Positions 1 through 36,742 of a stretch of 64,000 bases of DNA are shown one piece after another; position 1 is the first letter of the stretch, and the number at the start of each line of letters is the position of its first letter. The notes under the pieces are model-generated. The model ran no database searches. It saw nothing but the letters and a program-made list of their open reading frames with translations, and had not been told where the DNA came from. This stretch comes from Actinomycetes bacterium (GTDB lineage Bacteria; Actinomycetota; Thermoleophilia; Gaiellales; F1-60-MAGs149), in NCBI GenBank assembly GCA_025360225.1, contig JANYCN010000034.1:34063-98062 (forward strand), given 5' to 3'. Both the position numbers and the translations under genes were made by a program.

Positions 1-1
1 T

Positions 2-793
2 GGCAACCCGTGCGCGATCGACGAGATCGAGACCGTCATCGAGCGTGCCAACGGGGCCGGTGGGCGGATCGACCTGCTGGAGGACACGTGCGAGGCTCTC
101 GGCGCGAGCTTCGCCGGCAAGCAGTGCGGGAGCCACGGGGTGATGGGGACGTACAGCTTCTTCTTCTCCCACCACATCTCGACGATGGAGGGGGGGATGG
201 TCGTGACGGATGACGCCGATCTCGCCGAGACGCTCACCTGTCTTCGCGCCCACGGCTGGACGCGCGATCTCCCGCCCGGGTCGATGCTTGCTCGCGGGCT
301 CTCCGACGATCCGTTCGAGCGGCAGTTCCGCTTCCTTCTTCCGGGCTACAACGTCCGGCCGCTCGAGCTTGCAGCGGCGGTCGGGCTCGTCCAGGTGGAG
401 AAGCTGCCGCGCTTCATCGAGCAGCGTCGCGAGAACGCCGCCACCGCCCGGCGCCTGCTCGCGCCGCTCGCGGGAACGTTTGACCTGCAGAGGGAGACGG
501 CCGAGAGCTCGTGGTTCGGCTTCGGCATCACGATCACCGGCGTTGACCGTCGGGTCGTCACGCGGGCACTGCTCGCACGCGGGATCGAGCACCGGCCGAT
601 CATCACGGGGAACTTCGCCCGGCAGCCGGTCCTCAGGCACCTCGACCACCGGATCTCGGGCCCGCTCACCGGGGCAGACCACGTCGACCGCTGCGGCCTG
701 TTCGTCGGCAACCGGGAGCACGACCTCAGCGCCGAGCTCTCGTTGCTCGCCGCGACCCTGGAACGCCTCACCGAGGAGCGGCTGGCAGCATGA
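2..793 (+). CDS. ColD/E1-like PMP-dependent nucleotide-sugar 3-dehydratase with the DegT/DnrJ/EryC1 fold; the 5' end lies outside the window
   Basis: Frame 2 is open from the window edge into ORF 140..793. The translation ...[17 protein letters not shown] fits the SFxxxKxxxxGEGG cofactor motif but has His in the Lys position, as in ColD and E1 dehydratases. There is an ATGA overlap with gmd at 790-793. Confidence 0.75.
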
Positions 794-1845
794 GACGCGC
801 GTTGATCACCGGCGTGACTGGCCAGGACGGCTCGTACCTCGCCGAGCTTCTCCTCGCCAAGGGCTACGAGGTCCACGGTCTCGTACGGCGATCGTCGTCC
901 TTCAACACGGCGCGCATCGACCACCTGTTCCGCGATCCGCACGACCCGGAAGCCCGGCTGCACCTCCATCACGGAGACCTGTCGGACTCGGGGAACCTCC
1001 GTGGCCTCCTCGAGCGCACCCGGCCAGACGAGATCTACAACCTTGGCGCGCAGTCGCACGTGCGCGTCAGCTTTGACCAGGCCGAGTACACGGCGGACAT
1101 CGACGCTCTCGGCACGCTGCGGTTGCTCGAGGCGATCCGAGACCACGTGCGGATGACGGGTCACGATGTCCGCTTCTACCAGGCAGGGTCGTCGGAGATG
1201 TTCGGCTCCACGCCGCCGCCACAGTGCGAGACGACGCCCTTTCACCCACGCTCGCCCTACGCCGTCGCGAAGGTCTTCAGCTACCACCAGACGATCAACC
1301 ACCGCGAGGCGTTCGGCCTGCACGCTAGCAACGGGATCCTCTTCAACCACGAGTCGCCGCGCCGAGGCGAGACGTTCTTCACGCGCAAGATCACGCGCGC
1401 GGCGACGCGGATCGTCTACGGGCTGCAGGACGCCGTGCACGTCGGCAACCTCGACGCGCAGCGAGACTGGGGGCACGCCGAGGACTACGTCGAGGCGATG
1501 TGGTTGATGCTCCAGGCCGACGAGCCGGGGGACTACGTCGTTGCGACCGGCCAGATGATCGCCGCAGGCGAGTTCGCCCGGAGGGTGTTCGCCCGTCTCT
1601 CGCTCTCCGCCGAGCGGCACCTGCGCTACGACGAGCGCTACCTGCGAGCCGCCGAGGTCGATGCGCTCCAGGGCGACGCCGGCAAGGCCCGGGCCGTGCT
1701 CGGGTGGGCACCGCGACGCACCGTTGACGACCTGATCGAGGACATGGTCGTGAGCGACCTGGAGCTCGCTCGCCAGGAACGTCTGATCCGTGACAGCGGG
1801 AAGCCAGCCGACGCTCCCACCTGGAGCGAGCGGTGGGCGAGCTGA
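790..1845 (+). CDS. gmd: GDP-mannose 4,6-dehydratase
   Basis: [46 protein letters not shown]..., the YAVAKV (YxxxK) motif and [11 protein letters not shown] are all characteristic of Gmd. Length is 351 aa. Confidence 0.95.
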
Positions 1846-2759
1846 TCCTCGTCACCGGCGCCGGCGGCTTCGTTGGCGCGGCGCTGACGGCACGGCTCGT
1901 CCGGCTCGGACACGACGTCGTCGCGGTCACTCGGCCGGACGGGAACACCGCTCGCCTCACCGGGCTCCTCGGTCAGATCGAGGAGCGTCCCGTCGACCTG
2001 ACGTCGGGAGCCGCGATCGGACGGCTCGTCGACGACGTGAGGCCGACGGTCTGCGTCCACTGTGCCGCCGTCGGCGCGACGACGGTCTCGGAGGACGCCG
2101 ATGCGCTCGTCGCCGTGAACACGCTCGCCCCGCTCGCGTTCGCCAGGGCTCTGAGCCTGACCGGTTGCCGGCGTCTCGTCACCGTCGGCTCGAGCTCCGA
2201 GTACGGCCCGTCCGGCGAGCCGATGACGGAGGCGATGCTCGCGCGCCCCGACGACCTGTACGGCGCGACGAAGCTCGCCGGCGGGATCCTCGCCGGTACC
2301 GCAGCCCGGGCCGCCGGCCTCTCGGCCTGTCACGCCCGCCTCTTCTCGGTGTACGGCCCTGGGGAGGATCGACGACGGCTGATCGCCGCCGTCGCGAGCG
2401 CCGTCGTGAGCGGCAGGGCGGTCGAGCTCACCGAGGGCGCGCAGCGTCGCGACCTGGTCTTCATCGATGACGCCGTCGAGGCCCTCGTCCTCGCGATCGC
2501 CTCACCCGACCCGCCGGCGGTGTTCAACGTCGGCACGGGCCTCGGCTCGAGCGTTCGCGACGCGTGCCTTGCGCTTGCCGACGCCGCAGGGGCCAACCAC
2601 GACCTGCTGCGGTTCGGCGCCCTACCGTACCGGTCTGGCGAGCGGTTCGCCTGGAGCGCCGATCCTGCACGGGCCACGGCGCGCCTGGGCTTCGTCGCGA
2701 GGACGTCCCTCGTCGACGGCGCGAGGAAGACGGTGCAGGCGCTACTGGCCCACGCCTGA
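1833..2759 (+). CDS. NAD-dependent epimerase/dehydratase (extended SDR); possibly a ColC/Fcl-like GDP-4-keto-3,6-dideoxyhexose epimerase-reductase
   Basis: GTG start. It has the [13 protein letters not shown] Rossmann motif and the YGATK catalytic YxxxK. Length is 308 aa. It sits immediately downstream of gmd with a 13-nt overlap. Confidence 0.8.
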
Positions 2760-3305
2760 CCAGCGGACACGCCACCAGGCGTCGGCAGCAAGGAACGCCT
2801 CGTCGACCGTCGCGGCCTGGGCGACATGACCGAGATCGGCGACGATGACCGAGTGCCCACGCGCGCGGACATGCCAGGCGATCTCCGCCTCGAACGCTTC
2901 TGGCGGCACGAAGGCCGCTCGCTCGACGAGGTCGAGGTGGGCGGGTGCGACGGCGATCACCGGCGGCGCAGGGCAGTGCACCTCTCCCGCTTCGACGACC
3001 TCCGCTGTCCACCAGCGCAGGTCTTGGACGTGACGCGCGCCGGCGGCGGCGACGAGGCCGACCCCCTCGATCGCCAGCGCCGCACGGATCCGGGCACAGA
3101 GCCCGAGCGATCCAAACGTGGCCCGGGGCCGCGCCAGAACAAGCGCCTCGAGACCGGCGAGGCCACGCGCAGCTACGGCGATCTCGCGGTAGCCGTCGAC
3201 GAGGTCGTGCGCGTCCGACACGTAGCTGAGCGAGTCCGCCTCACCGTGTGTCTGCACGCACGCCTCGAACGTGCCAGCGGGCTCGAGCGACCCGAAGACG
3301 ATCAC
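2742..3305 (-). CDS. Hypothetical protein, last gene of the minus-strand sugar operon
   Basis: It lies within ORF 2742..3356. The GTG at 3305 forms a GTGA overlap with the stop of the upstream gene (3302-3304). I recognise no family motif. Confidence 0.4.
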   Translation of the reverse strand: MIVFGSLEPAGTFEACVQTHGEADSLSYVSDAHDLVDGYREIAVAARGLAGLEALVLARPRATFGSLGLCARIRAALAIEGVGLVAAAGARHVQDLRWWTAEVVEAGEVHCPAPPVIAVAPAHLDLVERAAFVPPEAFEAEIAWHVRARGHSVIVADLGHVAQAATVDEAFLAADAWWRVRWSGVGQ

Positions 3306-4327
3306 GCGGGCTGGCCCCACACGACGTCGAGCATCGCCCGGAAGCGCGCCGTCCACGTGTGCTCCCGGCTCGACCGCTTCCAGGCTGCCGTCGCCATCGC
3401 GATCCGCCGCTCGGGGTCGGCCAACAGGCGCCTGGTCTGCGTCACGCAGTCGTCGGGCGTCGCGTAGATCGCGATCTCCGAGCCGATCGCGAGCAGGTCC
3501 TCCAACCCGATGACGTAGTTCGAGAGCTGCGCCCCACCAGCGATGGCGATCTCGAAGTGCCGCGCCTTCACCTGCTCGTGCGCCTTTGCCATGTCACGGT
3601 TGGAGAGGAAGTTGCGCGGGTCCTCGAGCAGGTAGCGCGTGTCCATCTGACGTGAGTTCGAGACGTTCAGGTTCACGCGGCTCGTGCGGAAGACGTCGGC
3701 CATCTCTGCGAAGGTGACGCGACCGCGCGGCCAGCCTGCGCCGAAGCACTGCACGTCGATGCCGTCTCGTTGGAGGAACCGGACGAGCCAGGCCCGCCAC
3801 GGGTTGACGCCGCCGACGAAGGAGACGTCGTAGCGGAACGCCTCGTCGTCGCTGATCGGTCCGCCCCCGGCGTCGACCAGCTCAGCCGCGTACGCCGTCA
3901 CGATCGGGTGCCCACCGAGCGCCCGGTAGGCAGGTACGACGGATGCCTCGGTGGTCGCGCAGTACGTGAAGACGTCAGCGTAGTGGCGCGAGAAGGAATC
4001 GAAGCGCCACTGGTCGTCCCAGAAGAAGGCGAGCGTCGGAGCGTGCGAGCGGACCGTCCGCCACAGGTCGGTGGAGAAGTCGTGCTCGAACGTTGAGTAG
4101 AAGACGAGGTCGGGCCGGAAACGCTCGACCGCGTCGAGCAGCGCCGCGTCGAGGCTTCCCTTGGAGCGCATCGCGCCGTCGGTGTCGAACACCTCGCACT
4201 CGCCAACGAGCCCGGTGATCGCCGGCTGGAAGAACGAGCGGTCAAACGACGTCCCGCGCGCCGGGTCGCCGTAGTCGTACGCCGGGATCGCGAGAAGGAC
4301 CCTCCGGTCCGGATGGTCAGGCGGCAC
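3302..4327 (-). CDS. CgeB-family (Glyco_trans_1_2 type) glycosyltransferase-like protein
   Basis: The motifs RYDVSFVGGVNPWRAWLVRFL...GAGWPRG...RVNLNVS...KARHFEIAIAGGAQL...ADPERRIAMATAAWKRSSREHTW resemble the CgeB/YkvP family. I chose the GTG at 4327 as start. The Arg/Ser-rich N-terminal extension of the 403-aa ORF overlaps rfbG and is unlikely to be coding. Confidence 0.7.
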   Translation of the reverse strand: MPPDHPDRRVLLAIPAYDYGDPARGTSFDRSFFQPAITGLVGECEVFDTDGAMRSKGSLDAALLDAVERFRPDLVFYSTFEHDFSTDLWRTVRSHAPTLAFFWDDQWRFDSFSRHYADVFTYCATTEASVVPAYRALGGHPIVTAYAAELVDAGGGPISDDEAFRYDVSFVGGVNPWRAWLVRFLQRDGIDVQCFGAGWPRGRVTFAEMADVFRTSRVNLNVSNSRQMDTRYLLEDPRNFLSNRDMAKAHEQVKARHFEIAIAGGAQLSNYVIGLEDLLAIGSEIAIYATPDDCVTQTRRLLADPERRIAMATAAWKRSSREHTWTARFRAMLDVVWGQPA

Positions 4328-5312
4328 GCCGCTGGCCGTTCGCGCCGTCGAGGTATCGCTCGTACCACCCGACGGTGCGCTCGATCCCGGCGTCGAGCCC
4401 GAACCGCGGCTGCCAGCCGAGCAGCGTCCGGGCCTTTGCCGCCGAGAGGTGCTGTGCGGGGATCTCGTGGAGCGCGGTCGCGCCGATCGATGCCTCGAGA
4501 TCGGGGCGTCCACATGCCTCGATCAGGCGGGTGGTCATCGCGAGCGCGCTGAGCGGCGTCTCGTTCGAGAAGTTGAAAGCCTCGCCACGGATCATTGGCT
4601 CGTGCGCGCGCTCTGCGAGCCGCACGTAGGCGTCGGCGGCGTCGTCAACGTAGAGGTAGTCGCGGATCGGTGAGCCGTCGCTCCGCAGGAGCGGCGAGCG
4701 GCCCGCGAGCGCGTCCCGGATCGCTCCAGGCACGAGACGGTTGAAGTTGAGGTCGCCGCCGCCGTAGAGGTTTCCGCAACGCGTCACCACGACCGGCAGG
4801 TCATACGTCGTCGCGTAGGTCTGGGCGATCAGGTCGGCGCAGCTCTTTGAGACGTCGTAGGGATGGCGTCCGGCGAGCGCCTGGTCCTCGCGATACGGCA
4901 GATCGACCTGGCTTCCGTACGCCTTGTCCGACGAGGCGACGACGATCCGGCTCGGGCGGGCGCTTCGCCGGCAGGCGTCGAGTAGCTCCCACGTCCCTGC
5001 GACGTTCGCGCGGAACGTCCCGATCGGGCTCCGCAGGGCGTGGCCGACGATCGTCTGAGCCGCCAGGTGGAACACCGCGTCGATCTCATACTCGACGAGC
5101 ACACGCTCGACGAGGGAGCCGTCCTCGACGTCCCCCGACACGGTGACGCAGCGCGCACGGTCGCCGCTCGTCTCGAGGAGCGCGTCGGGCACGACGTCGC
5201 GAACGAGCGCCACGACGCGCGCTCCCTCTCCGATCAGACGTGGCACGAGCCACGAGCCAAGCAGCCCCGTGGCACCGGTGACGAGGACCGGCCTGTCCTG
5301 CCAGAAGCTCAT
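4317..5312 (-). CDS. rfbG: CDP-glucose 4,6-dehydratase
   Basis: [26 protein letters not shown] is the typical RfbG N-terminus, and YDVSK is the YxxxK motif. The ATG at 5312 (by frame arithmetic) shares one nt with the rfbH stop (TGATG). Confidence 0.85.
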   Translation of the reverse strand: MSFWQDRPVLVTGATGLLGSWLVPRLIGEGARVVALVRDVVPDALLETSGDRARCVTVSGDVEDGSLVERVLVEYEIDAVFHLAAQTIVGHALRSPIGTFRANVAGTWELLDACRRSARPSRIVVASSDKAYGSQVDLPYREDQALAGRHPYDVSKSCADLIAQTYATTYDLPVVVTRCGNLYGGGDLNFNRLVPGAIRDALAGRSPLLRSDGSPIRDYLYVDDAADAYVRLAERAHEPMIRGEAFNFSNETPLSALAMTTRLIEACGRPDLEASIGATALHEIPAQHLSAAKARTLLGWQPRFGLDAGIERTVGWYERYLDGANGQRRAA

Positions 5313-6673
5313 CAGCCGGCCTTTCGCAGGCGTGAGCGCCACGTTGCGAACGTCGCCGCGACGTGCTCAACGTGCGCTTCCCCGATCCCCGGGAAGCACC
5401 CGATCCAGAGGCTGTTCTCGGCAATCTGGTCGGTCGTGTCGAGCCGGCCAACAACGCGGTGAACGCATTCCCGGTAGGCGGGCTGGCGTAGGAGGTTTCC
5501 GGCGAAGATCTGCCGCGTTGCGATGCCGGCTCCTTCGAGGTGACGGACGAGGTCGCGGCGACTCAGACCGGCCTCGGCACGGAGCGTGAGCGCGAAGCCG
5601 AACCAGCTCGGGTCGCTTCCCGCCGTCGCCTCGGGCAGCACGAGGACGTCGGCGTAGGACGCGAGCGCCGTGGAAAGCCGTGCGTGGTTGGCCCGACGGG
5701 CGGCGACGAACTGGGGGAGCCGTTCGAGCTGGACGCGGCCGATCGCCGCCTGCAGGTCGGTCGCCTTCAGGTTGTAGCCAACGTGGGAGTAGACGTACTT
5801 GTGGTCATACCCGGCAGGGAGCGTGCCGAGCTGCTGGTCAAACCGTTTCCCGCAGGTGTTCTCGCAACCAGGCTCACACCAGCAGTCCCGGCCCCAGTCG
5901 CGGATCGACTCGACGATGCGCTTCAGCGCCGGGCGTCGGGTCAGGACCGCACCGCCCTCGCCCGTGGTGATCTGGTGCGCCGGGTAGAAGCTAAGCGTCG
6001 CGAGCGCACCGAACGTGCCAACCTGGCGTCCGTCAAACGTCGCACCGAGAGCGTCACAGCAATCCTCGACGAGGTAGAGGTCGTGCCGCTCGCAGAAGGC
6101 AGAGATCGCTGCGAGGTCGAACGGGTTGCCGAGCGTGTGTGCGAGCACGACCGCCCGCGTCCGCGCCGAGCGAGCCGCCTCGAGCCGTGCAACGTCGATG
6201 TTGTAGGTCGGCAGCGTGACGTCGACGAACACCGGCACGAGGCCGTTCTGCAGGAGCGGGGCGACGGTCGTCGGAAAGCCGGCGGCGACGGTGATCACCT
6301 CGTCACCGGCGACGAGGCGTCGATCCGCGAGCAGCGGCGAGCAGAGCGCGGAGACGGCAGCAAGGTTGGCGCTCGACCCCGAGTTCACCATCAGGGCGTG
6401 GCGTTGCCCCGTCGCACGGGCCAGCGCGCGCTCGAAAGCGCGCGTCTCCGGTCCGGCCGTGAGCCAGAAGTCGAGCGATGCGCGCACCGCCGCGACCACC
6501 TCGGCAGCGCCGTAGACACGACCGGAGACCGGCACCGACGGTGCGGCCGGGTTGAACGACGCCGCCTCGCAGCGTGCGTCAACGAGGTCGGCGACCTGCG
6601 CCAGCAGTGCATCGCGGGGCTCCACGCGTTCGCTATCGGCAGGCAGACGACCATCCTTGAAAGCGGTCCTCAT
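5312..6673 (-). CDS. rfbH: CDP-4-keto-6-deoxy-D-glucose 3-dehydrase (E1, RfbH/DdhC-like), PMP-dependent
   Basis: It has the DegT fold and the motif [14 protein letters not shown], with His replacing the Schiff-base Lys. It also has the Cys-rich [16 protein letters not shown] segment expected for the E1 Fe-S site. I chose the ATG at 6673, 15 nt after the upstream stop. Confidence 0.85.
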
Positions 6674-6687
6674 CCTGCTTTCAAGCA

Positions 6688-8025: not shown

Positions 8026-8032
8026 GAACGGT

Positions 8033-8061
8033 GTATCGACCGCTCACGCGCCTTCCTCAAG
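8033..8061 (-). promoter_or_regulatory. Sigma-28-like promoter (copy D) for the GT2-rfbH-rfbG operon
   Basis: On the minus strand the sequence reads CTTGAG-N15-GTCGATAC, then 7 nt, then the GTG at 8025. The -35 hexamer is the reverse complement of the -35 of copy A. Confidence 0.55.
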
Positions 8062-8084
8062 CCAGCTTCAAGCGTTGCCGATAC
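8056..8084 (+). promoter_or_regulatory. Sigma-28-like promoter (copy A) for the ThDP enzyme-rfbF operon
   Basis: CTCAAG (8056-8061), then N15, then GCCGATAC (8077-8084). The ATG at 8095 follows 10 nt downstream. Confidence 0.6.
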
Positions 8085-8094
8085 CACGGAGAAG

Positions 8095-10616: not shown

Positions 10617-10623
10617 TCCCTGG

Positions 10624-12003: not shown

Positions 12004-12011
12004 CTGCATCG

Positions 12012-12040
12012 GTATCGACGCGCACGTCTGACCACTTGAG
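12012..12040 (-). promoter_or_regulatory. Sigma-28-like promoter (copy C)
   Basis: On the minus strand the sequence reads CTCAAG-N15-GTCGATAC. ATG codons follow 2 nt and 8 nt downstream. Confidence 0.6.
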
Positions 12041-12058
12041 GAGGTTGCCCGTACCACC

Positions 12059-12087
12059 CTCAAGTGGTATCGCGACTCCGTCGATAC
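12059..12087 (+). promoter_or_regulatory. Sigma-28-like promoter (copy B) for the 14-kb plus-strand glycosyltransferase/flagellar gene string
   Basis: CTCAAG-N15-GTCGATAC, then 7 nt, then the GTG at 12095. It is an exact mirror image of copy C. Confidence 0.6.
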
Positions 12088-12094
12088 CGACGAA

Positions 12095-17795: not shown

Positions 17796-20548
17796 GGGTG
17801 CTGATGACGATGTTCGGCTGGGATGACGCCGGCGGCGGCACGACGATCCCGCGCGAGACGGCGTACGAGCTCGCCCGCCGCGGCCACGACGTGACCGTCT
17901 TCTACGCCGCCACCGAGCCGCTCGCCGGGGCCGGTCGCAACGCGATCCGTGAGCGGTCGGTGGGCGGCGTCCGGCTTGTCGGCGTGCACAACCGCCGCTC
18001 AGTGCTGCTCGACATCGGCCACCCGAGACGGGAGATCGAGGACCCGGAGATCACCGCTGCGTTCGGGTCGCTGCTCGACGAGGTGCGCCCTGACGAGGTG
18101 CTCTTCCACAACCTCCACAACCTCGGCGTCGCCCTCACCGGCGAGACCGCTGCGCGCGGGATCCGTGCGACGTTCACGCCGCACAACTTCTGGCTCCTCT
18201 GCTCACGCAACCACCTGTTGCGACCCGGACCCGCGCTCTGCGACGGGCCTGCTGATCGCGGCGCGGTCTGCGCGTCGTGCACCGGCAGCGGTGCGGTGAT
18301 CGACCACGAGGGCCGCACCAGCGAGCTCCGCGAGCAGGTCTCGCTGAACGTCGAGACGATCACCTGCGTCTCCGCCACCGTGCGCGACGTCCTCGAAGGC
18401 GCGGGCTTTCCCGCGGCGATGCTGGACGTCGCGCCGGTCGCGCCGCCGACGGCTGCGAGCATCTGGGAGGCCGTCGGCAGGGACCGTACCCCGTCGCGGT
18501 CGACGCCCCTGCGGGTGGGGTTCATCGGCTCGTTGCAATCGTTCAAGGGCGCCGCCGTCCTCGCCGCCGCGGCGTCGCTCGCCCGGGCGGAGGTTCTCGT
18601 CGATATCCACGGCGCCGGCGACGAGGAGGCGAGAAGGGCGATCCTTCGCGAGGGCGAGGGGCGCGTGCGGCTCGCCGGCGCCTACAGGACCGCAGACCTG
18701 CCGCAGATCCTCGCGAGCATCGACGTGGCCGTCGTCCCCTCGCTGGTCTGGGAGACCGCTGGCCTGACCGTGCTCGAGTGCCTTGCTGCGCGCGTGCCGG
18801 TGATCGTGCCGCGGCTCGGTGGTCTCGTCGAGTCGATCACGGACGGCGTCAACGGCCTCGTCTGCGAGGCATGGAGCGCTCCCGCGATCGCGGCGGCGCT
18901 CGACCGGCTCGCGGCCGAGCCAGGCCTCCTCGAACACCTGCAGGCGAGCATCGAGGCGCCGCGGACGTTCACGGCGTACGTTGACGACGTCGAGCGGCGT
19001 TGGCGGGATGGTGCGCCAGCGATCCGGACGCGGAACGAGCTGGCCGTTGCGTGGAAGGGCGATCAGCTGCGTCTCTCGAGCCTTGCGGCGGTGAACCGGG
19101 CGGTGTGTGACGGCCTCGAGCGGATCGCCGGGATCCGCCTCGCTCGGCGGGCCAACGACGACCCGACGGCACGTGCGCCGCTGCCACACCCAGCCCACGT
19201 CGAGGTACGACACCAGTGGCCGCCAGACTTCACTGCCGTCGGCGCCGGTCGTCTCGCCCTGATCCAGCCGTGGGAGTTCGGCTCGATCCCGCTCGGCTGG
19301 CGGGACGCCATCCGCGAGTCGGTCGACGAGGTGTGGGTGCCGAGCGAGCACGTGCGGCGCATGTACGTCGACGACGGCATCGACGCGGACCGTGTTCACG
19401 TGGTTGGAAACGGCGTCGACCTCACGCTCCTGACGCCCGAAGGCCCCCAGCATCCGCTGCTGCCGACTCGCGGCGTACGGTTCCTCTACGTCGGCGGCAC
19501 GATCTACCGCAAGGGCGTTGACGTCCTCGTTGAGGCGTTCAAGGAGGCGTTCGGTGGCGGCGACGCGGCGACCCTCGTCGTCAAGGACGTCGGCGCGGCG
19601 TCGTTCTACCAGGGGATGTCGGCCGGGGAGAACATCCGCCAGACGCCCGGGTTGCTGTACGTCGACGACGACCTGACGGACGAGCAGATGGCGGCGCTGT
19701 ACCGCAGCTGCGACGTCCTGGTGCACCCCTACCGCGGCGAGGGCTTCGCGATGCCGGTGCTCGAGGCGATGGCGTGTGGCCTGCCGGTGATCGTCAGCGC
19801 CGGCGGCCCGACGGACGAGTTCTGTCCCGCGGAGGCGTGCTGGCGGATCGTGACGACGCGCCGGGCGGTCCCGCAGGGACGGATCGGGATGGAGACGGTG
19901 CAGGAACCGTGGATGCTCGAGCCCGACGCCGACGATCTCGTCCGGCTGTTCCGCGCCGTTGCCGATGACCCGGCGGAGCGTGCGCGGCGCGGCGCTGCTG
20001 GTCGGGCGGCCGCGCTGGAGCATGGCTGGCAGGCGATCGCGGACCGCTATGCCGAGCGCCTTCACGCTCTCGCTCGGCGGCCGCCGCTCGTGCGCTCGCG
20101 GCCGGTCGAGCCGTTCCCGCTGCCGGGCGCCCGAGCGCGGAACGTGCTCGCCACCCCGGCCTGGCTGGGCGACGATCGCCTCCCCGAGCTCCTGCGCGCG
20201 TGGTCGGAGGCGTTCGACGTGAACGACGATGTCGCTCTGTTCCTGCTCGCCGACCCGCGCCGCGACGGCGACGCTGACCGCTGGGAGAGGCACGTGATGG
20301 CGGCAATCGACGAGGCGGGCGTCGATCCCGACCGGCTCGCCGACATCGCGGTGCTCGATCACCCGTGCCAGGGGGACGACGCCCGGCGCATCCACGACGC
20401 CTGCGACGCCTTCGTTCCCCTGCACGCCGCGTGCGCCGGACACGCACGGCTCGCACGCCTCGTCATCGAACCAGACGCACGTACGCTCAAGCTCGTGCCC
20501 GTACGCGCCGAAAACGATACCGATACCGTGGTGAAGGTGAGGATCTGA
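17792..20548 (+). CDS. Double GT4 glycosyltransferase plus a C-terminal half-Rossmann module (paralog 3)
   Basis: GTGA overlap at 17792-17795. The first GT4 has VLMTMFGWDDAGGGTTIPRETAYEL. The second GT-B domain has FLYVGGTIYRKGVDVLVEAF...HPYRGEGFAMPVLEAMACGLPVIVS. The tail is VLATPAWLGDDRLPELLRAWSEAFDVNDDVALFLLAD. Confidence 0.85.
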   Translation: MRVLMTMFGWDDAGGGTTIPRETAYELARRGHDVTVFYAATEPLAGAGRNAIRERSVGGVRLVGVHNRRSVLLDIGHPRREIEDPEITAAFGSLLDEVRPDEVLFHNLHNLGVALTGETAARGIRATFTPHNFWLLCSRNHLLRPGPALCDGPADRGAVCASCTGSGAVIDHEGRTSELREQVSLNVETITCVSATVRDVLEGAGFPAAMLDVAPVAPPTAASIWEAVGRDRTPSRSTPLRVGFIGSLQSFKGAAVLAAAASLARAEVLVDIHGAGDEEARRAILREGEGRVRLAGAYRTADLPQILASIDVAVVPSLVWETAGLTVLECLAARVPVIVPRLGGLVESITDGVNGLVCEAWSAPAIAAALDRLAAEPGLLEHLQASIEAPRTFTAYVDDVERRWRDGAPAIRTRNELAVAWKGDQLRLSSLAAVNRAVCDGLERIAGIRLARRANDDPTARAPLPHPAHVEVRHQWPPDFTAVGAGRLALIQPWEFGSIPLGWRDAIRESVDEVWVPSEHVRRMYVDDGIDADRVHVVGNGVDLTLLTPEGPQHPLLPTRGVRFLYVGGTIYRKGVDVLVEAFKEAFGGGDAATLVVKDVGAASFYQGMSAGENIRQTPGLLYVDDDLTDEQMAALYRSCDVLVHPYRGEGFAMPVLEAMACGLPVIVSAGGPTDEFCPAEACWRIVTTRRAVPQGRIGMETVQEPWMLEPDADDLVRLFRAVADDPAERARRGAAGRAAALEHGWQAIADRYAERLHALARRPPLVRSRPVEPFPLPGARARNVLATPAWLGDDRLPELLRAWSEAFDVNDDVALFLLADPRRDGDADRWERHVMAAIDEAGVDPDRLADIAVLDHPCQGDDARRIHDACDAFVPLHAACAGHARLARLVIEPDARTLKLVPVRAENDTDTVVKVRI
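20486..20514 (+). promoter_or_regulatory. Sigma-28-like internal promoter (copy E) inside the 3' end of the preceding gene
   Basis: CTCAAG-N15-GCCGAAAA, ending 35 nt before the GTG at 20550. AAGGTGAGGA lies between and could act as a Shine-Dalgarno sequence. Confidence 0.5.
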
Positions 20549-20549
20549 C

Positions 20550-23066
20550 GTGGCGCTGAAGATCGTTCGGGCATCCCAGGACGAGCGCCTGCAGACGCCG
20601 CTGCGCGCCTGGTACGGCGGCCAGCACGACGAGGCCATCACCCTGCTCGCGTCGCCCGAGGGCGGCCGTTTCGCGGACGACGCGACGCAGGTCGTCGCGG
20701 CAGCGCTCGCCACCGAACCGGAGCGCGTCGCGGCGATCGGCACGGCCCTGACGCGCTGGACCGACGAGTCGGCCGCCTACCGGATCCTCCGCCGCAGCGC
20801 CGAGAGCCTGATCGACGAGACGGCCGCGATCTCGCCCGCGCGCTGGGCGCCCCGCGGGATGACGCTGCTTGCCCTGACACGTCCGTGGCTCGACGTCCAT
20901 CCAGCCGAGCCGGTCCTGCTCAACTACGTCGGTGTCACGCTGTACGGGTTGAACGAGCCGTCCCTCGCGCTCGGCCTCTTGCAGGCTGCGCAGGCGATCG
21001 ACCCGACGGTCGAGAACATCGCCGGCAACCTGGCCGCCGTTCGCCACCGGGTGCGACACCCTGTCGTCCTGCACCTCGGCCCGCGCGAGAGCGGACAGAT
21101 GAAGGCACAGCGCGCCTTCTTCAAGGCGCTCGGCGGGCGTGCCCGCGTAGCCGCCGACCCGGTTCGCCTGTCGCTCTGCATGATCGTCCGCGACGAGGAG
21201 GAGATGCTCCCCGAGTGCCTGGCGTCGTGCGCCGCAGGGGTTGACGAGATCGTCATCGTCGACACCGGATCGACCGATCGAACCGTCGAGATCGCCGAGT
21301 CGTTCGGCGCCACGGTGCTGCACTTCCCGTGGAACGGCTCATTCTCCGATGCCCGTAACCACGGCATCGCTGCGGCAACGGGCACCCACATCCTCTGGCT
21401 CGACGCCGACGAGCGGCTCGAGGACGGCGACGCGGAGAACCTGCACGCGGTCGCCGGCGAGCCGTACCGCGAGGCGCACTGGCTCGTCGAGACGAACTTC
21501 ACCGGTCAGGAGGAGGTCGGAACCGCGGCCACCCACCTCGCCCTGCGGATCTGGAAGAACCGGCCGCAGTACCGTTTCACCGGTGCGATCCACGAGCAGA
21601 TCCGCGTCTCGATGCCGACCGATCTGGGAGAGCGGTTCGCCGTCTCTAGCCTCCGCATCCGCCACTACGGGTACCTGAAGAGCCGGATCGACGAGCGCGA
21701 CAAGCACCAGCGCAACCTGACGCTGCTGCTGAAGGAGCTTTTGCAGAGCCCGAACAACGCCTTCACGCACTTCAACCTCGGCACCGAGTACCTCGGCACG
21801 CAGGACCTCGACCTGGCGTCGAAGCACCTCGAGGAGGCATACCGGCTGCTGCAGCGCGACGAGGGCTGGTACGAGTACGCGTACGCGTCGCTGCTGGCGA
21901 CGCGCCTCGTGGGCATACGCCGCGTCCGCGGCGACCTTGATGGTGCCGACGTGCTCGCCTCGCAGCTCTTGCAGGCCTACCCGGCGTTCACCGACCTCGT
22001 GTTCGAGCGTGGCTTGATCGCCCGTGAGCGGGACGACAGGCACGGTGCGATCGAGCACTTCGAGACGTGCCTTGAGATGGGCGACGCACCGGCGCGGTTT
22101 GCCGGGATGGTCGGTCGTGGCACGTTCCTCGCGCTCGCGGCGCTCGCGACGACCGCCCTCGAGATCGACGACCAGGACCGTGCGATCGGCTACCTCGAGC
22201 GGTCGCTGGACGAGCACCCGTCCTACCTCCCGGCAGGCCTCGACCTGACGGACGCGCTCCTCGTCGCTCCGGGCTGCGATCCGGCCGCCGTCCTCGCCCG
22301 CATGGAGGCAACGGGCAACGACGTCGCGACCTGGTGGCTGTTCCTCGGCACCGCGTTCTACGAGCGTGGCCACTCGCTGATCGCCGAGTCCCTGTTTCGT
22401 CGAGCGCTCGCGAAGGCGCCGACGAACCCGGCCGCGAGCATCGGCCTCGTCGAGACGCTGCTCACCCAGCACCGTTACGCCGAGGCAGCCGCCGGAGCAC
22501 CGGATCTGCCGGTCGGCACGCCGTTCTTCCTCGCCGTCGAGCGCGCGCGGATCCTCGCCCTCTCGCTCGCCAACGAGGCGACCGCCGCGACCGCCGCGGC
22601 CGAGCGGTTCGCCGCGGGCGGCGCCGACCCAGCGGAGGCGGCGTTCCTCGTCCACCTCGCACCGGCGATCGCTGGGATGGAGGACGGCGTCGCGCTGCCC
22701 GCTTCGTCGGCGCCATTCGCGCTTCGCATGCTCGACTCGCTCGCACGTCTCGAGGAGTACGACGCGTTCGGGCGGCTCGTCCCGCTCGTCACCGGCGCGA
22801 TCGGCAACGGTCGTGTGGCGGCGCTGTCGCTCGCCGAGCTGTACCTCGCGCGCGGCTTCTACCAGCTCGCGGGTGAGCAGGCGATCGCCGCGATCGAGAT
22901 CGGCGGGCCCGAGGCGCGCGCGCTCGCCGTCCTCGGCAAGGCGGCGGTTGCCGAAGGACTGTTCGACGACGCGTTGCCGGTGCTCGAGGCCTCGCTCGAG
23001 CTCGATCCGTCGCAGGTGCCGGTGCGCACCCTGCTCGACACGCTACGCACCCGCGTCGCGGCGTAA
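20550..23066 (+). CDS. TPR-GT2-TPR protein (FlmG-like architecture); candidate protein glycosyltransferase
   Basis: The central LSLCMIVRDEEEMLPECLASC...IVIVDTGSTDRT...LWLDADERLE is a GT2 domain. It is flanked by TPR-like helical repeats (FNLGTEYLGTQDLDLASKHLEEAY, GLDLTDAL...FLGTAFYERGH...). Confidence 0.8.
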   Translation: MALKIVRASQDERLQTPLRAWYGGQHDEAITLLASPEGGRFADDATQVVAAALATEPERVAAIGTALTRWTDESAAYRILRRSAESLIDETAAISPARWAPRGMTLLALTRPWLDVHPAEPVLLNYVGVTLYGLNEPSLALGLLQAAQAIDPTVENIAGNLAAVRHRVRHPVVLHLGPRESGQMKAQRAFFKALGGRARVAADPVRLSLCMIVRDEEEMLPECLASCAAGVDEIVIVDTGSTDRTVEIAESFGATVLHFPWNGSFSDARNHGIAAATGTHILWLDADERLEDGDAENLHAVAGEPYREAHWLVETNFTGQEEVGTAATHLALRIWKNRPQYRFTGAIHEQIRVSMPTDLGERFAVSSLRIRHYGYLKSRIDERDKHQRNLTLLLKELLQSPNNAFTHFNLGTEYLGTQDLDLASKHLEEAYRLLQRDEGWYEYAYASLLATRLVGIRRVRGDLDGADVLASQLLQAYPAFTDLVFERGLIARERDDRHGAIEHFETCLEMGDAPARFAGMVGRGTFLALAALATTALEIDDQDRAIGYLERSLDEHPSYLPAGLDLTDALLVAPGCDPAAVLARMEATGNDVATWWLFLGTAFYERGHSLIAESLFRRALAKAPTNPAASIGLVETLLTQHRYAEAAAGAPDLPVGTPFFLAVERARILALSLANEATAATAAAERFAAGGADPAEAAFLVHLAPAIAGMEDGVALPASSAPFALRMLDSLARLEEYDAFGRLVPLVTGAIGNGRVAALSLAELYLARGFYQLAGEQAIAAIEIGGPEARALAVLGKAAVAEGLFDDALPVLEASLELDPSQVPVRTLLDTLRTRVAA

Positions 23067-23188
23067 CCACGGTGTTTCCCCGAACGGGGGATCTTTCGAC
23101 ACGCTTGCGATCCGTCCAATATGATCTTGTGTAGCTGTGTCCCCGGCATGAGGCCAGGGTCCTGCGAGGTACCGCCAAGGAGGCCGCG

Positions 23189-23503
23189 GTGCAAGCACAG
23201 CGCGCGACAGATGTCAGCGAGTTCCCCGACCGCATCACGCCGATCGAGCGCGTGCACGCGGCAGCACAGGTGCACGCGGCGACGCAGGCCCATGCGGGGT
23301 TCTCCGTCGTCGTGGCGGACGCGACGCCGAGCCGGACGTTCGAGGTCCGCTACGGCCTCGATCCGATCGCCAACGTGTGGGTGGCGAGCTTCTTCGACGG
23401 CGCCACCGGCGAGCTCGTGAAGACGGTGCCCTCGACGAAGGTCATGCACCAGCTGGCAGAGCTGCGGGCGATCCACGAGCGCTCCGTCGATCACCACGCC
23501 TGA
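23189..23503 (+). CDS. flaG: FlaG-like flagellar protein
   Basis: GTG start preceded by AAGGAGG. The C-terminal FEVRYGLDPIANVWVASFFDGATGELVKTVPSTKVMHQLAEL resembles the FlaG family core. Length is 104 aa. Confidence 0.7.
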   Translation: MQAQRATDVSEFPDRITPIERVHAAAQVHAATQAHAGFSVVVADATPSRTFEVRYGLDPIANVWVASFFDGATGELVKTVPSTKVMHQLAELRAIHERSVDHHA

Positions 23504-23552
23504 CGACTCCGGATCCGCGGTTGACGTACGTCGCGAAAACGGCAAACTTCCC

Positions 23553-23581
23553 CTTCACCGATGGGGGTTGCACGCCGATAG
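23553..23581 (+). promoter_or_regulatory. Weaker sigma-28-like element (copy G) upstream of fliS
   Basis: CTTCAC-N15-GCCGATAG, ending 47 nt before the GTG at 23629. The -10 half and the spacing are good but the -35 half is poor. Confidence 0.35.
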
Positions 23582-23628
23582 ATGGAGAAGGCGATACCGC
23601 ATCGCACCCCATCGCGGTCGGAGGACAC

Positions 23629-24000
23629 GTGGCAACGGGCTACCAGGCGTACCAGACGAACGCGATCCAGACCGCTCCGCCAGAGCAGCTCGTCGTGATG
23701 CTCTACGACGGCTGTCTGCGGTTCCTTCGTCGCGCCGAGAGCGCCGCGAAGACCGGTACCCGGCCCCAGGTGACCGAGGCCGTCGCACGCGCGACGGCGA
23801 TCATCATGGAGCTCAACGCCACGCTCGACATGGAGCGTGGGGGAGAGATCGCGTCGAACCTGCGCTCGCTGTACTTCTTCCTGCACCGGCACCTGCTCGA
23901 GGCGTCCCGCGAGGGTTCGCCGGAGCAGATTCGCCAGGCGATCGGGCTGATCGGAGACCTGCGCGACGCCTTCGCGGAGGCGGCGAAGAAGGTCGCGTGA
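23629..24000 (+). CDS. fliS: Flagellar export chaperone FliS
   Basis: YQAYQTNAIQTAPPEQLVVMLYDGCLRFLRRA...ATAIIMELNATLDMERGGEIASNLRSLYFFLHRHLLEA is canonical FliS. The GTG at 23629 is preceded by GGAGGA. Confidence 0.9.
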   Translation: MATGYQAYQTNAIQTAPPEQLVVMLYDGCLRFLRRAESAAKTGTRPQVTEAVARATAIIMELNATLDMERGGEIASNLRSLYFFLHRHLLEASREGSPEQIRQAIGLIGDLRDAFAEAAKKVA

Positions 24001-24326
24001 TCGGCAGCGACGTCGAGAGGGTGCTGCGAACGGTCGTCGAGCTGACCGAGCTCGAGTCGGCGCTGATCGCCGAGCGCGACGCGGCGGCCCTGACGATGCT
24101 CGGCGATGAACGCGAGGCGCTCCTCCGTGAGCTTCCCGACGCCCTCCCCGAGCGCTGCGCACCCCTCGTCGAGCGCTTCAGGCGCGCTCGCGACGCGAAC
24201 CTGATCGCTGCCACGGCGGCGGCGGCGGCGATCCGCTCCCAGCTCGGCACGACCCACCAACGACGCAAGGCGATCGGCGGTTACGCCTCCGACGCCCGTG
24301 AGCGTCCGGAGCGCGGGGTCGCCTGA
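23997..24326 (+). CDS. Small helical protein, possibly an FlgN/FliT-like flagellar chaperone
   Basis: GTGA overlap with fliS and TGATG overlap with fliD. The sequence VVELTELESALIAERDAAALTMLGDEREALLREL is weakly FlgN-like. Length is 109 aa. Confidence 0.45.
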   Translation: MIGSDVERVLRTVVELTELESALIAERDAAALTMLGDEREALLRELPDALPERCAPLVERFRRARDANLIAATAAAAAIRSQLGTTHQRRKAIGGYASDARERPERGVA

Positions 24327-26188
24327 TGAGCACGACGCCGACGACCTCGACCTCGGGGAACTCGATCAACTTCACCGGGCTCGCGTCCGGCATCGACACC
24401 GCGTCGATCGTCACCGAGCTGATGCGGATCGAGCACCGGCCGGTCGACCTGATGACGATCGCGCAGACCGTCGAGCAGACCCGCAACCAGGCGCTCGCTG
24501 ACATCTCAACGAAGCTGAAGTCGCTGAAGACGGCAGCGGACTCGATCAGCGACCAGGCGTTCTGGACGGGAGCGGCGCACGGAACCTCCGGTGACGAGTC
24601 GTCGTTCACCGTCGCCGTCGCCGCGGGCGCGCCGAAGGCCACCTACCAGGTGCAGGTGAAGAACCTCGCCTCAGGTGACGTCTGGGCACAGCAGGCAACG
24701 GCGGGGACGCACACCTTCGGCGAGGTGTACGCCGGCGCTGGCGTCCTCGGTACGAGCACCTCGCTGCTCAGCTCGCTGACGACCGCGACCGGCACCTCGC
24801 TCGGCCTCGTCGCCGGCCAGACGGTGTCGCTCGGGGCATCCGTCGGCGGCTCGCCGCTGACCACGACGCCCTTCACGGTCACCGCGACCTCGACGCTCGA
24901 CGACCTCAAAGGCTGGGTGCAGACCCAGCTGCCAGGCGCGAGCGTCGGCATCGCGACGGGCGGGCGGATCCGCATCACGAGCGGTGTCGGCACCGACCAG
25001 GACGTCATCGGCGCACGGCTCAGCAGCTCCGGACCAGCCTCCGCCGTGTTCAACAGCCAGTTCAACGCGCCCGTTGCGAACACGCCGGCTCTCGGTCTCG
25101 GCAAGGTGAACGCCGACGACACGCTGCACGTCGGCGCGTCAGGCATGACCTTCGACGTGACCGTGCGCGCCGGCTGGACGATGGCGCAGGTCGCCCAGGC
25201 GATCAACGGCGCGAACGGCGGCGTCACGGCCGGCGTCACCGATGGCCGCCTGCGGATCTCCGCGAAAGACACCGGAACCATCGGCGGGGGCGTATCGATC
25301 TCCTCGAGCGGCTCGGCCGCGGGTGACCTCGCGCTCGTTCGCCAGTCGACGGCACGAGACGCGCTCGTGACGGTCGACGGCATCGACGTATCGAGCGCGA
25401 CGAACACCACGAGCTCGGTGATTCCCGGCGCGACGCTGACGCTGCTGAAGAGCATGACGACGAGCGCGACGGCGACGACCGACCCGAACTGGGTCGACTC
25501 CGCGGAGGCAACGAAACGCGCGCAGGGGTACGTCGACGCGTACAACGTGGTGCTCGACACCGTCAACGCCGCGGTCACCGAGCAGAAGGTGCCGAAGCCT
25601 GCAAACGCCGGTGACCGTCTGCGGGGCCTGCTGTTCAACGACGGGACGCTGACGACGATCCAGGACGGCCTGCGCAACGCGATGGCGAACGCCGTCGGCG
25701 GTCTCGCGCCGGGCAAGGGGCTCGGCACGAACATCGGCATCTCCACCGGCGCAGCGAACAGCGGCGGGGTGGCGAACAACAAGAGCGCGATCGACGGACG
25801 GCTGACGTTCGACGCGACGGCGTTCCAGGCGGCGTTCGCGAACGACCGGGAGTCGGTACGCAACGTCATCGGCCAGGTCGGCTCGACATCGCGCACCACC
25901 GGTCTCGCCGCCCGCGTCTCCGACCTCGTCGCGAACTACACCTCCTCGACGAGCTACATCGGCGTCAACGGCACCCTGCACACGCTGAACGGCGGCGGCA
26001 TCCTCGCGGCGGCGATCACGGGATCGGCCGCGAAGATCAAGGACTACGACCAGCGCATCGCCGACATGACCGACCGCCTGACGCTCCGCGAGGCGACGCT
26101 GAAGGCGCAGTTCACCGCGATGGAGACGGCGATCAGCCGGCTGAAGGCGGCGCAGGTCAGCTTCCCGACGACCACGACGGGCGGGTAG
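24326..26188 (+). CDS. fliD: Flagellar filament cap protein FliD (HAP2)
   Basis: INFTGLASGIDTASIVTELMRIEHRPVDLM...TKLKSLKTAADSI at the N-terminus, and C-terminal ...RLTLREATLKAQFTAMETAISRLKAAQ, are typical of FliD. Confidence 0.9.
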   Translation: MSTTPTTSTSGNSINFTGLASGIDTASIVTELMRIEHRPVDLMTIAQTVEQTRNQALADISTKLKSLKTAADSISDQAFWTGAAHGTSGDESSFTVAVAAGAPKATYQVQVKNLASGDVWAQQATAGTHTFGEVYAGAGVLGTSTSLLSSLTTATGTSLGLVAGQTVSLGASVGGSPLTTTPFTVTATSTLDDLKGWVQTQLPGASVGIATGGRIRITSGVGTDQDVIGARLSSSGPASAVFNSQFNAPVANTPALGLGKVNADDTLHVGASGMTFDVTVRAGWTMAQVAQAINGANGGVTAGVTDGRLRISAKDTGTIGGGVSISSSGSAAGDLALVRQSTARDALVTVDGIDVSSATNTTSSVIPGATLTLLKSMTTSATATTDPNWVDSAEATKRAQGYVDAYNVVLDTVNAAVTEQKVPKPANAGDRLRGLLFNDGTLTTIQDGLRNAMANAVGGLAPGKGLGTNIGISTGAANSGGVANNKSAIDGRLTFDATAFQAAFANDRESVRNVIGQVGSTSRTTGLAARVSDLVANYTSSTSYIGVNGTLHTLNGGGILAAAITGSAAKIKDYDQRIADMTDRLTLREATLKAQFTAMETAISRLKAAQVSFPTTTTGG

Positions 26189-29758: not shown

Positions 29759-29775
29759 CCGCTGCTCGGAGGATA

Positions 29776-36165: not shown

Positions 36166-36168
36166 GGC

Positions 36169-36678: not shown

Positions 36679-36698
36679 GCTCGTTCAGGTTCTCGCGG

Positions 36699-36732: not shown

Positions 36733-36742
36733 GCTGCGAGAG

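Follow-up and report, generated by a model that had tools for sequence, protein, structure and literature searches.

A stretch of 64,000 nucleotides (the window) on contig JANYCN010000034.1 of assembly GCA_025360225.1, from an uncultured member of the Thermoleophilia (Actinomycetota), begins within a dense array of nucleotide-sugar and glycosyltransferase (GT) genes that leads into genes of the flagellar filament. This array, here called the island, spans about 24.4 kb, from about 1.4 kb before the window to position 23066, and we consider it probable that it serves the glycosylation of the flagellum, with flagellin as the acceptor. Because the window is about 70% G+C, genes were chosen by codon-position G+C and then checked against Pfam and NCBIfam.

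Island boundaries and flagellar context

The sequence to the left of the window was reached through its truncated first protein, which led to a full-length, 100% identical protein (P0121) and thence to contig L032; a degenerate DNA pattern derived from window positions 5-43 had no match in the JGI metagenomes. L032 overlaps window positions 1-1056 over 1056 nt at 100% identity with zero mismatches (the same strain) and carries, in this order, cheC, cheD, fliM, fliY, cheY, a gene for a 322-aa short-chain dehydrogenase/reductase (SDR) resembling GDP-fucose synthase, colD and gmd. The SDR gene, located directly 3' of cheY, is the first gene of the island, which, given the cheC-cheD-fliM-fliY-cheY run of L032, is bordered by chemotaxis or flagellar genes at both ends.

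Downstream of the island, a flaG-like gene, fliS, a fliT-like gene and fliD follow on the same strand. The run into flagellar genes described in the first-pass annotation of this DNA is borne out. The assignments of the flagellin export chaperone FliS (23629-24000, plus strand; TIGR00208, 94 bits against a cut-off of 54) and of the filament cap FliD (24326-26188, plus strand; Pfam FliD_N and FliD_C) are firm. The gene junctions are also as described there, with GTGA, ATGA or TGATG overlaps at 790, 9810, 14761, 16419, 17792, 23997 and 24326, a 1-nt spacer at 20548/20550, and gaps of 122 and 125 nt (estimated earlier at about 120 nt) ahead of the flaG-like gene and fliS. The names given to the two smaller proteins fared less well. 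The flaG label of the 104-aa protein at 23189-23503 (plus strand) is upheld by its position, a TGExVKxVPS motif and a 64% identical open reading frame (ORF) in the related locus L007, with weak FlaG matches found only in positional equivalents (E 0.03-0.09). The small helical protein of 109 aa at 23997-24326 (plus strand), originally called FlgN-like, is nearer to FliT: the ORF itself matches FlgN at E 0.15, and its equivalents match FliT at E 8.8e-5 (locus L008) and 0.018 (L007). Pfam confirms neither the FlaG nor the FlgN name for the window's own proteins.

A soluble glycosyltransferase set without lipid-carrier machinery

By Pfam, the island encodes ten GT domains, matching the "about ten" of the first-pass annotation, and all of them are soluble. 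On the minus strand lie the genes for a CgeB-like transferase of the Glyco_trans_1_2 type (3302-4327; PF13524, E 6e-26; a 341-aa gene call in the public assembly L001), a 445-aa GT2 that is soluble by hydropathy (6688-8025; PF00535, E 3.8e-24), and a GT4 of the GT-B type preceded by an N-terminal region of about 110 aa resembling tetratricopeptide repeats (TPR) (10624-12009; Pfam GT4, E 3.7e-20). The repeats attributed to the latter protein are weak in its own sequence (E 0.02-0.08), whereas its homologues at 40-45% identity bear Pfam TPR domains. The plus strand carries, in succession, a two-domain GT2+GT4 protein (12095-14764; both domains by Pfam, 50% identical to its L007 orthologue), a GT4 (14761-16422, Pfam; GTGA overlap), a GT2 (16419-17795, Pfam; ATGA overlap), a two-domain GT4+GT4 protein (17792-20548, Pfam) and an 838-aa TPR-GT2-TPR protein (20550-23066). 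The GT4+GT4 gene is a recurrent neighbor of the TPR-GT2-TPR gene, with homologues directly upstream of it in L007 (57% identity) and L008 (36%).

No convincing membrane segment was found in any island protein (Kyte-Doolittle hydropathy, 19-residue window, threshold 2.0). The sole stretch above the threshold, at the N-terminus of the GT2 encoded at 16419, was considered as a membrane anchor and rejected, its sequence pattern being that of a beta-strand and a helix in a degenerate GT-A half-domain. Pfam likewise detected no priming transferase, Wzx, Wzy, Wzz, ABC or LCP family in any island protein, and none of the priming transferases, flippases, polymerases or ABC components was found in the flanks covered, namely, 6.9 kb upstream (L032) and 38 kb downstream. 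The first-pass annotation had already reported that membrane, priming, Wzx/Wzy and ABC components were missing from the island, and had pointed to the flanks as the place where such genes might still turn up; on both counts, the result is negative. Furthermore, no island protein matches the Maf (MAF_flag10) domain in Pfam, and no NeuB, Pse or Leg family is above cut-off in Pfam or NCBIfam.

The terminal TPR-GT2-TPR protein

The protein encoded by the last gene of the island is a homologue of GmaR, the flagellin O-linked N-acetylglucosamine (GlcNAc) transferase of Listeria, a bifunctional protein that also has an anti-repressor role (PMC9638930). It matches the GmaR GT domain (PDB 22ao) with E 1.7e-36 (129 bits, query residues 201-399) and 7X9R, a structure of GmaR residues 141-637 (PMC9638930), with E 4e-13 (query residues 345-586). 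The similarity is limited to the GT and TPR parts: it stops at residue 241 of the 7X9R chain (near GmaR residue 380), short of the linker and of the C-terminal anti-repressor domain that binds MogR, and no mogR-like gene was seen in the window.

Ten homologues were used for an AlphaFold model (pLDDT 85), which consists of an N-terminal helical array, a GT-A core (residues 207-372) and a long tail of helical repeats. The top Foldseek matches of this model are ThuS and SunS (E about 2e-11; template modeling (TM) score 0.57-0.71 on target), followed by TPR proteins, with GmaR lower in the list (E 1.8e-7; TM 0.56 on target). The sequence similarity to SunS amounts to 47 bits, and the best NCBIfam match is the SunS family, at 54 bits against a cut-off of 350. 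Across 10 homologues, neither the putative catalytic DAD motif (D285-A-D287) nor the GT core shows any variation. On the strength of sequence and model, we assign the protein provisionally to the GT-A enzymes of the GmaR/SunS class and regard it as a candidate initiating, flagellin-directed glycosyltransferase. The likeness to FlmG proposed in the first-pass annotation holds for the modular architecture but not for the transferase, which is GT-B-like in FlmG, and thus would be one of analogy. Because the gene is embedded in a multi-GT operon, the enzyme probably starts an oligosaccharide and does not simply add a single GlcNAc.

Conservation beside flagellar genes in related loci

The TPR-GT2-TPR family comprises more than 2300 members, and those that are named by source come from Gaiellales or Thermoleophilia metagenome-assembled genomes. 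A metagenome scan yielded 80 loci with a relative of the TPR-GT2-TPR protein, in which flagellar genes were sought by tblastn; 32 of the 80 have flagellar genes beside it. The fraction rises to 11 of 14 for the best matches extending over most of the protein's length (L034-L047), and the remaining three are contigs shorter than 5 kb, two of which end within 150 nt past the gene. In many relatives (e.g. L047, L051, L083 and L086), the gene adjoins flagellin itself. In L007, where the protein is 64% identical, the gene comes after other GT genes and is succeeded by a flaG-like gene, fliD, fliS, a small ORF and another fliD; in L008 (44%), it belongs to a complete cluster of flagellar genes, and flagellins are encoded 7-9 kb from it. 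The two fliD paralogues of L007 (453 and 600 aa), arranged around fliS at 12956-16931, differ from the situation in the window, which has only the long one.

Four of the loci (L037, L039, L041 and L042) present a simpler arrangement, in which the TPR-GT2-TPR gene is the sole transferase gene, with flaG-fliD-fliS on one side and a divergent sigma factor gene on the other. Against the FliA/WhiG family (TIGR02479, cut-off 189.6 bits), three of these sigma factors score 196-210 bits, whereas the fourth, in L042, falls just short (187.7). The sigma factor gene, the TPR-GT2-TPR gene and flaG-fliD-fliS are the minimal conserved unit.

Around this unit, the gene content of the island varies at a fixed position, as seen in the comparison of L007, L008, L033, L114 and L115; such variation is a hallmark of flagellin glycosylation islands (PMC4875605, PMC5109656). 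L007 is the only locus to share four of the GTs in the window, and a homologue of the GT4+GT4 protein recurs in L007, L008, L109 and L065. Orthologues of the GT4 encoded at 10624 are found in L114 and L115, one gene past fliY in the former and directly past fliY in the latter, at or near the head of differing sets of sugar, methyltransferase and GT genes. The relative loci compared lack close counterparts of the window's sugar genes, save for a Gmd homologue in L008 (51%); the matches to ColD or RfbH in L047 and L106 are weak (30-34%). The start of the island is the same in L033, a relative at 85% identity, in which an inserted segment (4944-8650) encoding a TetR regulator, an MTTB-family methyltransferase, a B12-binding protein and a DUF1638 protein separates cheY from the first gene of the island.

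Two nucleotide-sugar pathways

The first-pass annotation had recognized two nucleotide-sugar pathways, and Pfam and NCBIfam bear out both, one of the GDP-colitose type (ColD, Gmd) and one of the CDP-3,6-dideoxyhexose type (RfbF, RfbH/E1).

The first pathway begins at the left edge. Positions 1-793 of the window (ORF 2-793, plus strand) hold the 3' 264 codons of a gene of the DegT family that matches ColD, the GDP-4-keto-6-deoxymannose 3-dehydratase. P0121 is the full 398-aa protein, and its gene starts 405 nt before the window. It aligns over its full length with the structure of Escherichia coli ColD (2gms; 386 bits), compared to 183 bits for E1 (3bcx), and retains the Ser-His-His (SHH) active-site stretch of ColD, with His in place of Lys. 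The next gene, gmd (790-1845, plus strand; ATGA overlap with colD), encodes GDP-mannose 4,6-dehydratase by an equivalog match (TIGR01472, 485 bits; cut-off 415). The SDR upstream of colD in L032 scores 229 bits to GDP-fucose synthase, and on these data ColC and Fcl are indistinguishable. All three components of the GDP-L-colitose set (Gmd, ColD with His for Lys and a ColC candidate) are thus present and together make up a complete route of the GDP-colitose type, so that the prediction of a colitose-like sugar is well supported by homology. The nearest ColD relatives in GTDB representative genomes are only 45-55% identical and come from Burkholderiales, Desulfovibrio, Flavobacterium and Chlorobium; these being unrelated phyla, the pattern is consistent with lateral acquisition of the sugar genes.

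The genes of the second pathway are divided between the strands. RfbF/DdhA, the glucose-1-phosphate cytidylyltransferase (9810-10616, plus strand; TIGR02623, 342 bits, cut-off 300), and RfbH/DdhC, the CDP-4-keto-6-deoxyglucose 3-dehydrase E1 (5312-6688, minus strand; NF011936, 662 bits, cut-off 423), are equivalog matches. The true start of rfbH may be the GTG at 6625, just past a promoter-like motif described below, as homology begins at about 6622. An SDR encoded at 4317-5312 (minus strand) is a candidate CDP-glucose 4,6-dehydratase (DdhB/RfbG-like), with 202 bits to TIGR02622, below the cut-off of 278. A thiamine-diphosphate enzyme of the acetolactate-synthase type (8095-9813, plus strand; Pfam TPP_enzyme N, M and C domains) overlaps rfbF by GTGA and falls under every acetolactate synthase cut-off (455 against 538). 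Synthesis of yersiniose requires ddhA-D, yerE and yerF (PMC4509608). Of this set, the island holds DdhA and DdhC as equivalogs, a sub-threshold DdhB, the thiamine enzyme as a YerE-like candidate, and YerF candidates in the form of SDRs that lack an assigned specificity, from which a yersiniose-like sugar can reasonably be inferred. One of these SDRs, a 308-aa epimerase/reductase (1833-2759, plus strand; Pfam Epimerase, E 8.9e-46) whose best solved relatives are generic 4-epimerases, could possibly act as the 4-ketoreductase of either pathway.

Two alternative gene calls in this region were discarded. A minus-strand ORF at 8068-9819 belongs to no family, and the plus-strand thiamine enzyme was taken instead. 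A plus-strand ORF at 2826-3467, with 17% Arg and a wrong-frame composition, is probably spurious, and the minus-strand ORF 2742-3305 was preferred. The latter encodes a soluble 187-aa protein with no family match that closes the leftward rfbH operon; it has a natural amino acid composition, no membrane segment and, by coordinates, a four-base start/stop overlap with the CgeB-like gene, and is called as a gene in L001 and L002. No homologue of this protein was found in any relative locus compared.

Putative promoter motifs

The pattern TCAAG-N15-GYCGATA occurs in four exact copies in the 64-kb window, compared to 0.02 expected, and all four lie in the island and face the starts of transcription units. 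The copy at 6634-6660 (minus strand; GCCGATA) faces rfbH, with its in-frame GTG at 6625; the one at 8057-8083 (plus strand; GCCGATA) lies 11 nt ahead of the ATG of the thiamine enzyme at 8095; the one at 12013-12039 (minus strand; GTCGATA) abuts the ATG at 12009 of the GT4 encoded at 10624; and the one at 12060-12086 (plus strand; GTCGATA) lies 8 nt ahead of the GTG at 12095, the head of the long rightward operon. The location of the motif 0-11 nt before start codons suggests leaderless mRNAs or mRNAs with very short leaders.

Near-matches were found 37 nt ahead of the start of the TPR-GT2-TPR gene (20487-20513, plus strand), 5 nt ahead of the GTG of the minus-strand GT2 gene 6688-8025 (TTGAG-N15-GTCGATAC, at the start 8025), and upstream of fliS (TTCAC-N15-GCCGATAG, 23554-23581, plus strand), where the -10-like part is kept in L007. 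Near-matches also precede colC in L032 (5538-5566) and in L033. In the 16 closest relative loci, a relaxed form of the motif, T[AC]AAG-N14-15-G[CT]CGAT, was observed 14 times compared to 0.48 expected, and in the relatives it precedes fliC, the flaG-like gene, flgB and flgG. Looser variants with CTCNNG or CTTGAG and the same -10 part occur in relatives ahead of the flgF operon, the x-fliM-fliY operon and a gene for a 1208-aa GT.

Promoters of the FliA/WhiG (sigma-28) type have the consensus TAAA-N15-GCCGATAA, with GCCGATAA as the -10 hallmark, which the -10 part of the island motif carries. We interpret the island motif as a putative promoter of this type and, hence, as regulatory evidence that would place the island in the flagellar regulon.

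The gap ahead of the flaG-like gene (23067-23188) contains a sigma-70-like promoter, TCGACA-18-TATGAT (23096-23125, plus strand; one found, 0.1 expected). The same gap holds a stretch conserved with L007 12530-12635, TGTAGCTGTG..CCGGCATGAGGCC..GTACCGCCAAGGAGGC, which could represent either a regulator site or a structured 5' leader.

Genomic surroundings

In composition, the island (GC 0.69-0.74) is the same as its surroundings, and a foreign origin on this ground was rejected. No integrase or tRNA gene flanks it, the nearest tRNA gene being 3.5 kb beyond fliD; an Rfam scan detected no regulatory RNA, and no intrinsic terminator was found in the gaps or after fliD. Independent public assemblies of this organism break inside gmd, L032 stopping at window position 1056 and L001 and L002 beginning at 1482/1483, which hints at strain-level variation or a change in coverage at the left edge of the island.

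The 38 kb downstream encode an Ig/PASTA-like secreted protein, a PilZ protein, a subtilase, CopC/CopD, multicopper-oxidase-like proteins, a 2811-aa beta-helix protein, a two-component system, an amino-acid decarboxylase, polyphosphate kinase and two tRNAs. The PilZ-domain protein (29812-30426, plus strand), a few kb past fliD, is kept in L007 (18276-18887) and is possibly a flagellar brake responsive to cyclic di-GMP. In addition to CopC/CopD and the 2811-aa protein, the copper-related block (34435-51851, minus strand) comprises three large proteins whose multicopper-oxidase domains are weak; it sits in a stretch of strongly positive GC skew. The tRNA genes are tRNA-Gly(TCC) at 29685-29759 and tRNA-Arg(TCT) at 58658-58733, both on the minus strand, and neither borders the island.

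Weighing the alternatives

The interpretation of the island as a locus for lipid-carrier-independent flagellar glycosylation, which was already that of the first-pass annotation, is favored by both flanks, the lack of lipid-carrier machinery in the island, the homology to GmaR, the synteny and the promoter type. Several observations weigh against it or against its particulars. Every functional assignment is by homology, and the GT2 and GT4 families also serve envelope polysaccharides. A tblastn search with the flagellins of the relatives found no flagellin gene in the window, in line with the first-pass annotation, which had noted its absence there, and the 6.9 kb upstream contain none; flagellin is likewise not adjacent in L114 and L115, the syntenic relatives. 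As to the promoters, the pattern was set after GCCGATA had been noticed in two intergenic gaps, that is, in two of the four copies; its -35 part, TCAAG, departs from the canonical TAAA; and the flaG-like gene has the sigma-70-like promoter in place of the motif. In the CDP-sugar pathway, DdhD, the E3 reductase that is needed together with E1, was not found in the island by NCBIfam; the 4,6-dehydratase candidate (4317-5312) is under its family cut-off; and the YerE-like status of the thiamine enzyme derives from its family, not from a direct alignment with YerE.

A first alternative is that the island is an envelope polysaccharide locus, for a cell-wall glycopolymer, a capsule or an exopolysaccharide (EPS), that happens to lie between flagellar operons and relies on priming, export and ligase genes elsewhere in the genome. 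Multi-domain GTs of the GT2 and GT4 families fit such a locus, colitose and yersiniose-type sugars are classical components of O-antigens and capsules (PMC4509608), enzymes for EPS and teichuronic acid are the nearest named NCBIfam matches of the GTs (all far under the cut-offs), and the sequence examined was limited to the window and 6.9 kb upstream. Nevertheless, we consider a polysaccharide locus unlikely, given that there is not a single membrane protein among some 20 contiguous genes and that the families for priming, flipping, polymerization and ABC export are missing from the island and both flanks. Moreover, flagellar genes border the island on each side, its final gene encodes a GmaR homologue and is separated by 1 nt from the preceding GT gene, differing GT sets occupy the same position in relatives, and the promoter type of the island also precedes the flagellar operons of those relatives.

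If the target is a protein, it could conceivably be something other than flagellin, such as FliD or another exported flagellar protein, a pilin, an S-layer protein or a glycocin-type peptide. In favor of this possibility are the glycocin S-glycosyltransferases ThuS and SunS at the top of the Foldseek list, the best NCBIfam match to the SunS family (although far below its cut-off) and the lack of an adjacent flagellin gene in this lineage. However, the similarity to GmaR far exceeds that to SunS (129 against 47 bits), neither a precursor peptide nor an ABC exporter for bacteriocins is evident, and the gene adjoins flagellin in many relatives, all of which makes a different acceptor improbable. 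A third explanation, namely, that the main role of the TPR-GT2-TPR protein is to regulate flagellar expression by analogy with the anti-repressor function of GmaR and that the neighboring GTs make an unrelated product, draws on the bifunctionality of GmaR, on the divergent FliA/WhiG-type sigma factor gene in four relatives (one just under the cut-off) and on the long C-terminal helical repeats with no assigned partner, but appears very unlikely because the match to GmaR excludes the anti-repressor domain, the homologues show no variation in the DAD motif or the GT core, and little space separates the gene from the GT genes upstream (a 1-nt gap, after GTGA and ATGA overlaps between the preceding ones).

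A proposed model of flagellin glycosylation

For the flagellin glycosylation that we favor, homology and gene context suggest the following sequence of steps. Starting from GDP-mannose, Gmd, ColD and the GDP-fucose-synthase-like reductase would yield GDP-L-colitose or a closely related 3,6-dideoxy compound, and RfbF, the 4,6-dehydratase-like SDR and E1 (RfbH) would convert glucose-1-phosphate to a CDP-4-keto-3,6-dideoxyhexose, to which the thiamine enzyme, translationally coupled to rfbF, would probably add a two-carbon branch in the fashion of yersiniose. The TPR-GT2-TPR protein would grip flagellin via its helical repeats and, in the cytoplasm, place the first sugar on Ser or Thr directly from the nucleotide sugar, without a lipid carrier. 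Nine further soluble domains of the GT2, GT4 and CgeB-like types would then lengthen the glycan. The modified flagellin presumably leaves through the flagellar export apparatus with FliS as the chaperone and polymerizes under FliD. Since TCAAG-N15-G(C/T)CGATA promoters, putatively of the FliA/WhiG (sigma-28) type, are located near the start codons of each transcription unit, we propose that the island would be expressed together with the flagellar genes.

In its most specific form, the model posits a soluble, carrier-free assembly line of at least ten domains, driven by FliA-type promoters, that starts in the manner of GmaR and, in the cytoplasm, builds directly on a short actinobacterial flagellin a long heteroglycan containing two different 3,6-dideoxyhexoses, L-colitose and a C-4-branched, yersiniose-like sugar. 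We put forward this version only tentatively and think it doubtful that all its particulars will hold.

Relation to known systems

The island shares its general layout with the flagellin glycosylation islands of Pseudomonas, Campylobacter, Aeromonas, Enterobacteriaceae, Geobacillus and Clostridium: a block of sugar and soluble GT genes within the filament gene region, no lipid-carrier machinery, and variable content at a fixed position (PMC4875605, PMC5109656). It differs from these islands in its thermoleophilian host, in its location between fliM-fliY-cheY and flaG-fliS-fliD with no adjacent flagellin, in the joint presence of pathways of the GDP-colitose and CDP-branched-dideoxyhexose types, and in its large size, with ten GT domains.

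Among individual enzymes, GmaR of Listeria monocytogenes has a homologous GT2 catalytic domain followed by homologous TPRs and is likewise cytoplasmic, soluble and found in a flagellar context. Compared to GmaR, the protein encoded at 20550 has an additional helical N-terminal region of about 200 residues, a differing C-terminal TPR array and no detectable anti-repressor domain; it is also embedded in a multi-GT operon, and the homology does not imply GlcNAc as the donor. SunS and ThuS share with it a GT-A domain combined with helical repeats that acts directly on a polypeptide, but they modify Cys of small bacteriocin precursors, belong to bacteriocin operons and show modest sequence similarity to the protein. 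FlmG of Caulobacter crescentus is a cytoplasmic protein consisting of TPRs and a GT-B-like domain that transfers pseudaminic acid from CMP-pseudaminic acid (PMC7591256). It follows the same modular logic of a flagellin-binding TPR module joined to a transferase module; judging by its description, however, the 20550 protein is set apart by a GT-A domain with TPRs on both sides and by the absence of a nonulosonic-acid pathway. The protein encoded at 10624 has the domain order of FlmG (a TPR-like N-terminus and a GT-B domain).

The sugar genes resemble the colitose and yersiniose O-antigen pathways of Gram-negative bacteria, with which the island shares Gmd, ColD with His for Lys, an Fcl/ColC-like reductase, DdhA, DdhC and a thiamine enzyme coupled to ddhA. 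The differences from those loci are the flagellar context, the absence of DdhD from the island and the sub-threshold DdhB. With respect to flagellin, enterobacterial islands containing genes for CDP-4-keto-6-deoxyglucose have been described as a genomic prediction (PMC4875605), and a 2026 survey of Clostridium predicts flagellar glycans with a 3,6-dideoxyhexose (paratose), along with GT2-TPR candidate flagellin transferases (PMC13317340). The Clostridium islands are the nearest published parallel. The novelty claimed in the first-pass annotation is therefore narrower than stated: we found no paper that connects colitose or yersiniose with flagellin, but flagellin islands with a predicted 3,6-dideoxyhexose (PMC13317340) or with CDP-4-keto-6-deoxyglucose genes (PMC4875605) had already been published. 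Flagellar genes are present in 41-91% of Thermoleophilia species according to a survey of actinobacterial flagella that makes no mention of glycosylation (PMC10746217), and we found no report of flagellar glycosylation in this class.

Implications

The gain over previous work is incremental, because the concept of flagellin glycosylation islands is established and dideoxyhexose predictions exist for Clostridium. Within these bounds, the present results would extend such islands to the Thermoleophilia, a class of actinobacteria that is abundant in soil and mostly uncultured, and predict rare antigenic sugars on the flagellum. The promoter signature would tie the synthesis of the glycan to the flagellar regulon. 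Should the most specific version of the model hold, L-colitose and a yersiniose-like sugar would be shown for the first time in a flagellin glycan, and the island would be the first flagellin glycosylation system in Actinomycetota. More generally, the association with flagellar genes in 32 of the 80 loci indicates that GmaR-like GT2-TPR enzymes are a broadly flagellum-linked family that extends beyond Listeria and that provides a sequence handle for finding, in genomes, flagellin transferases that are neither Maf nor FlmG.

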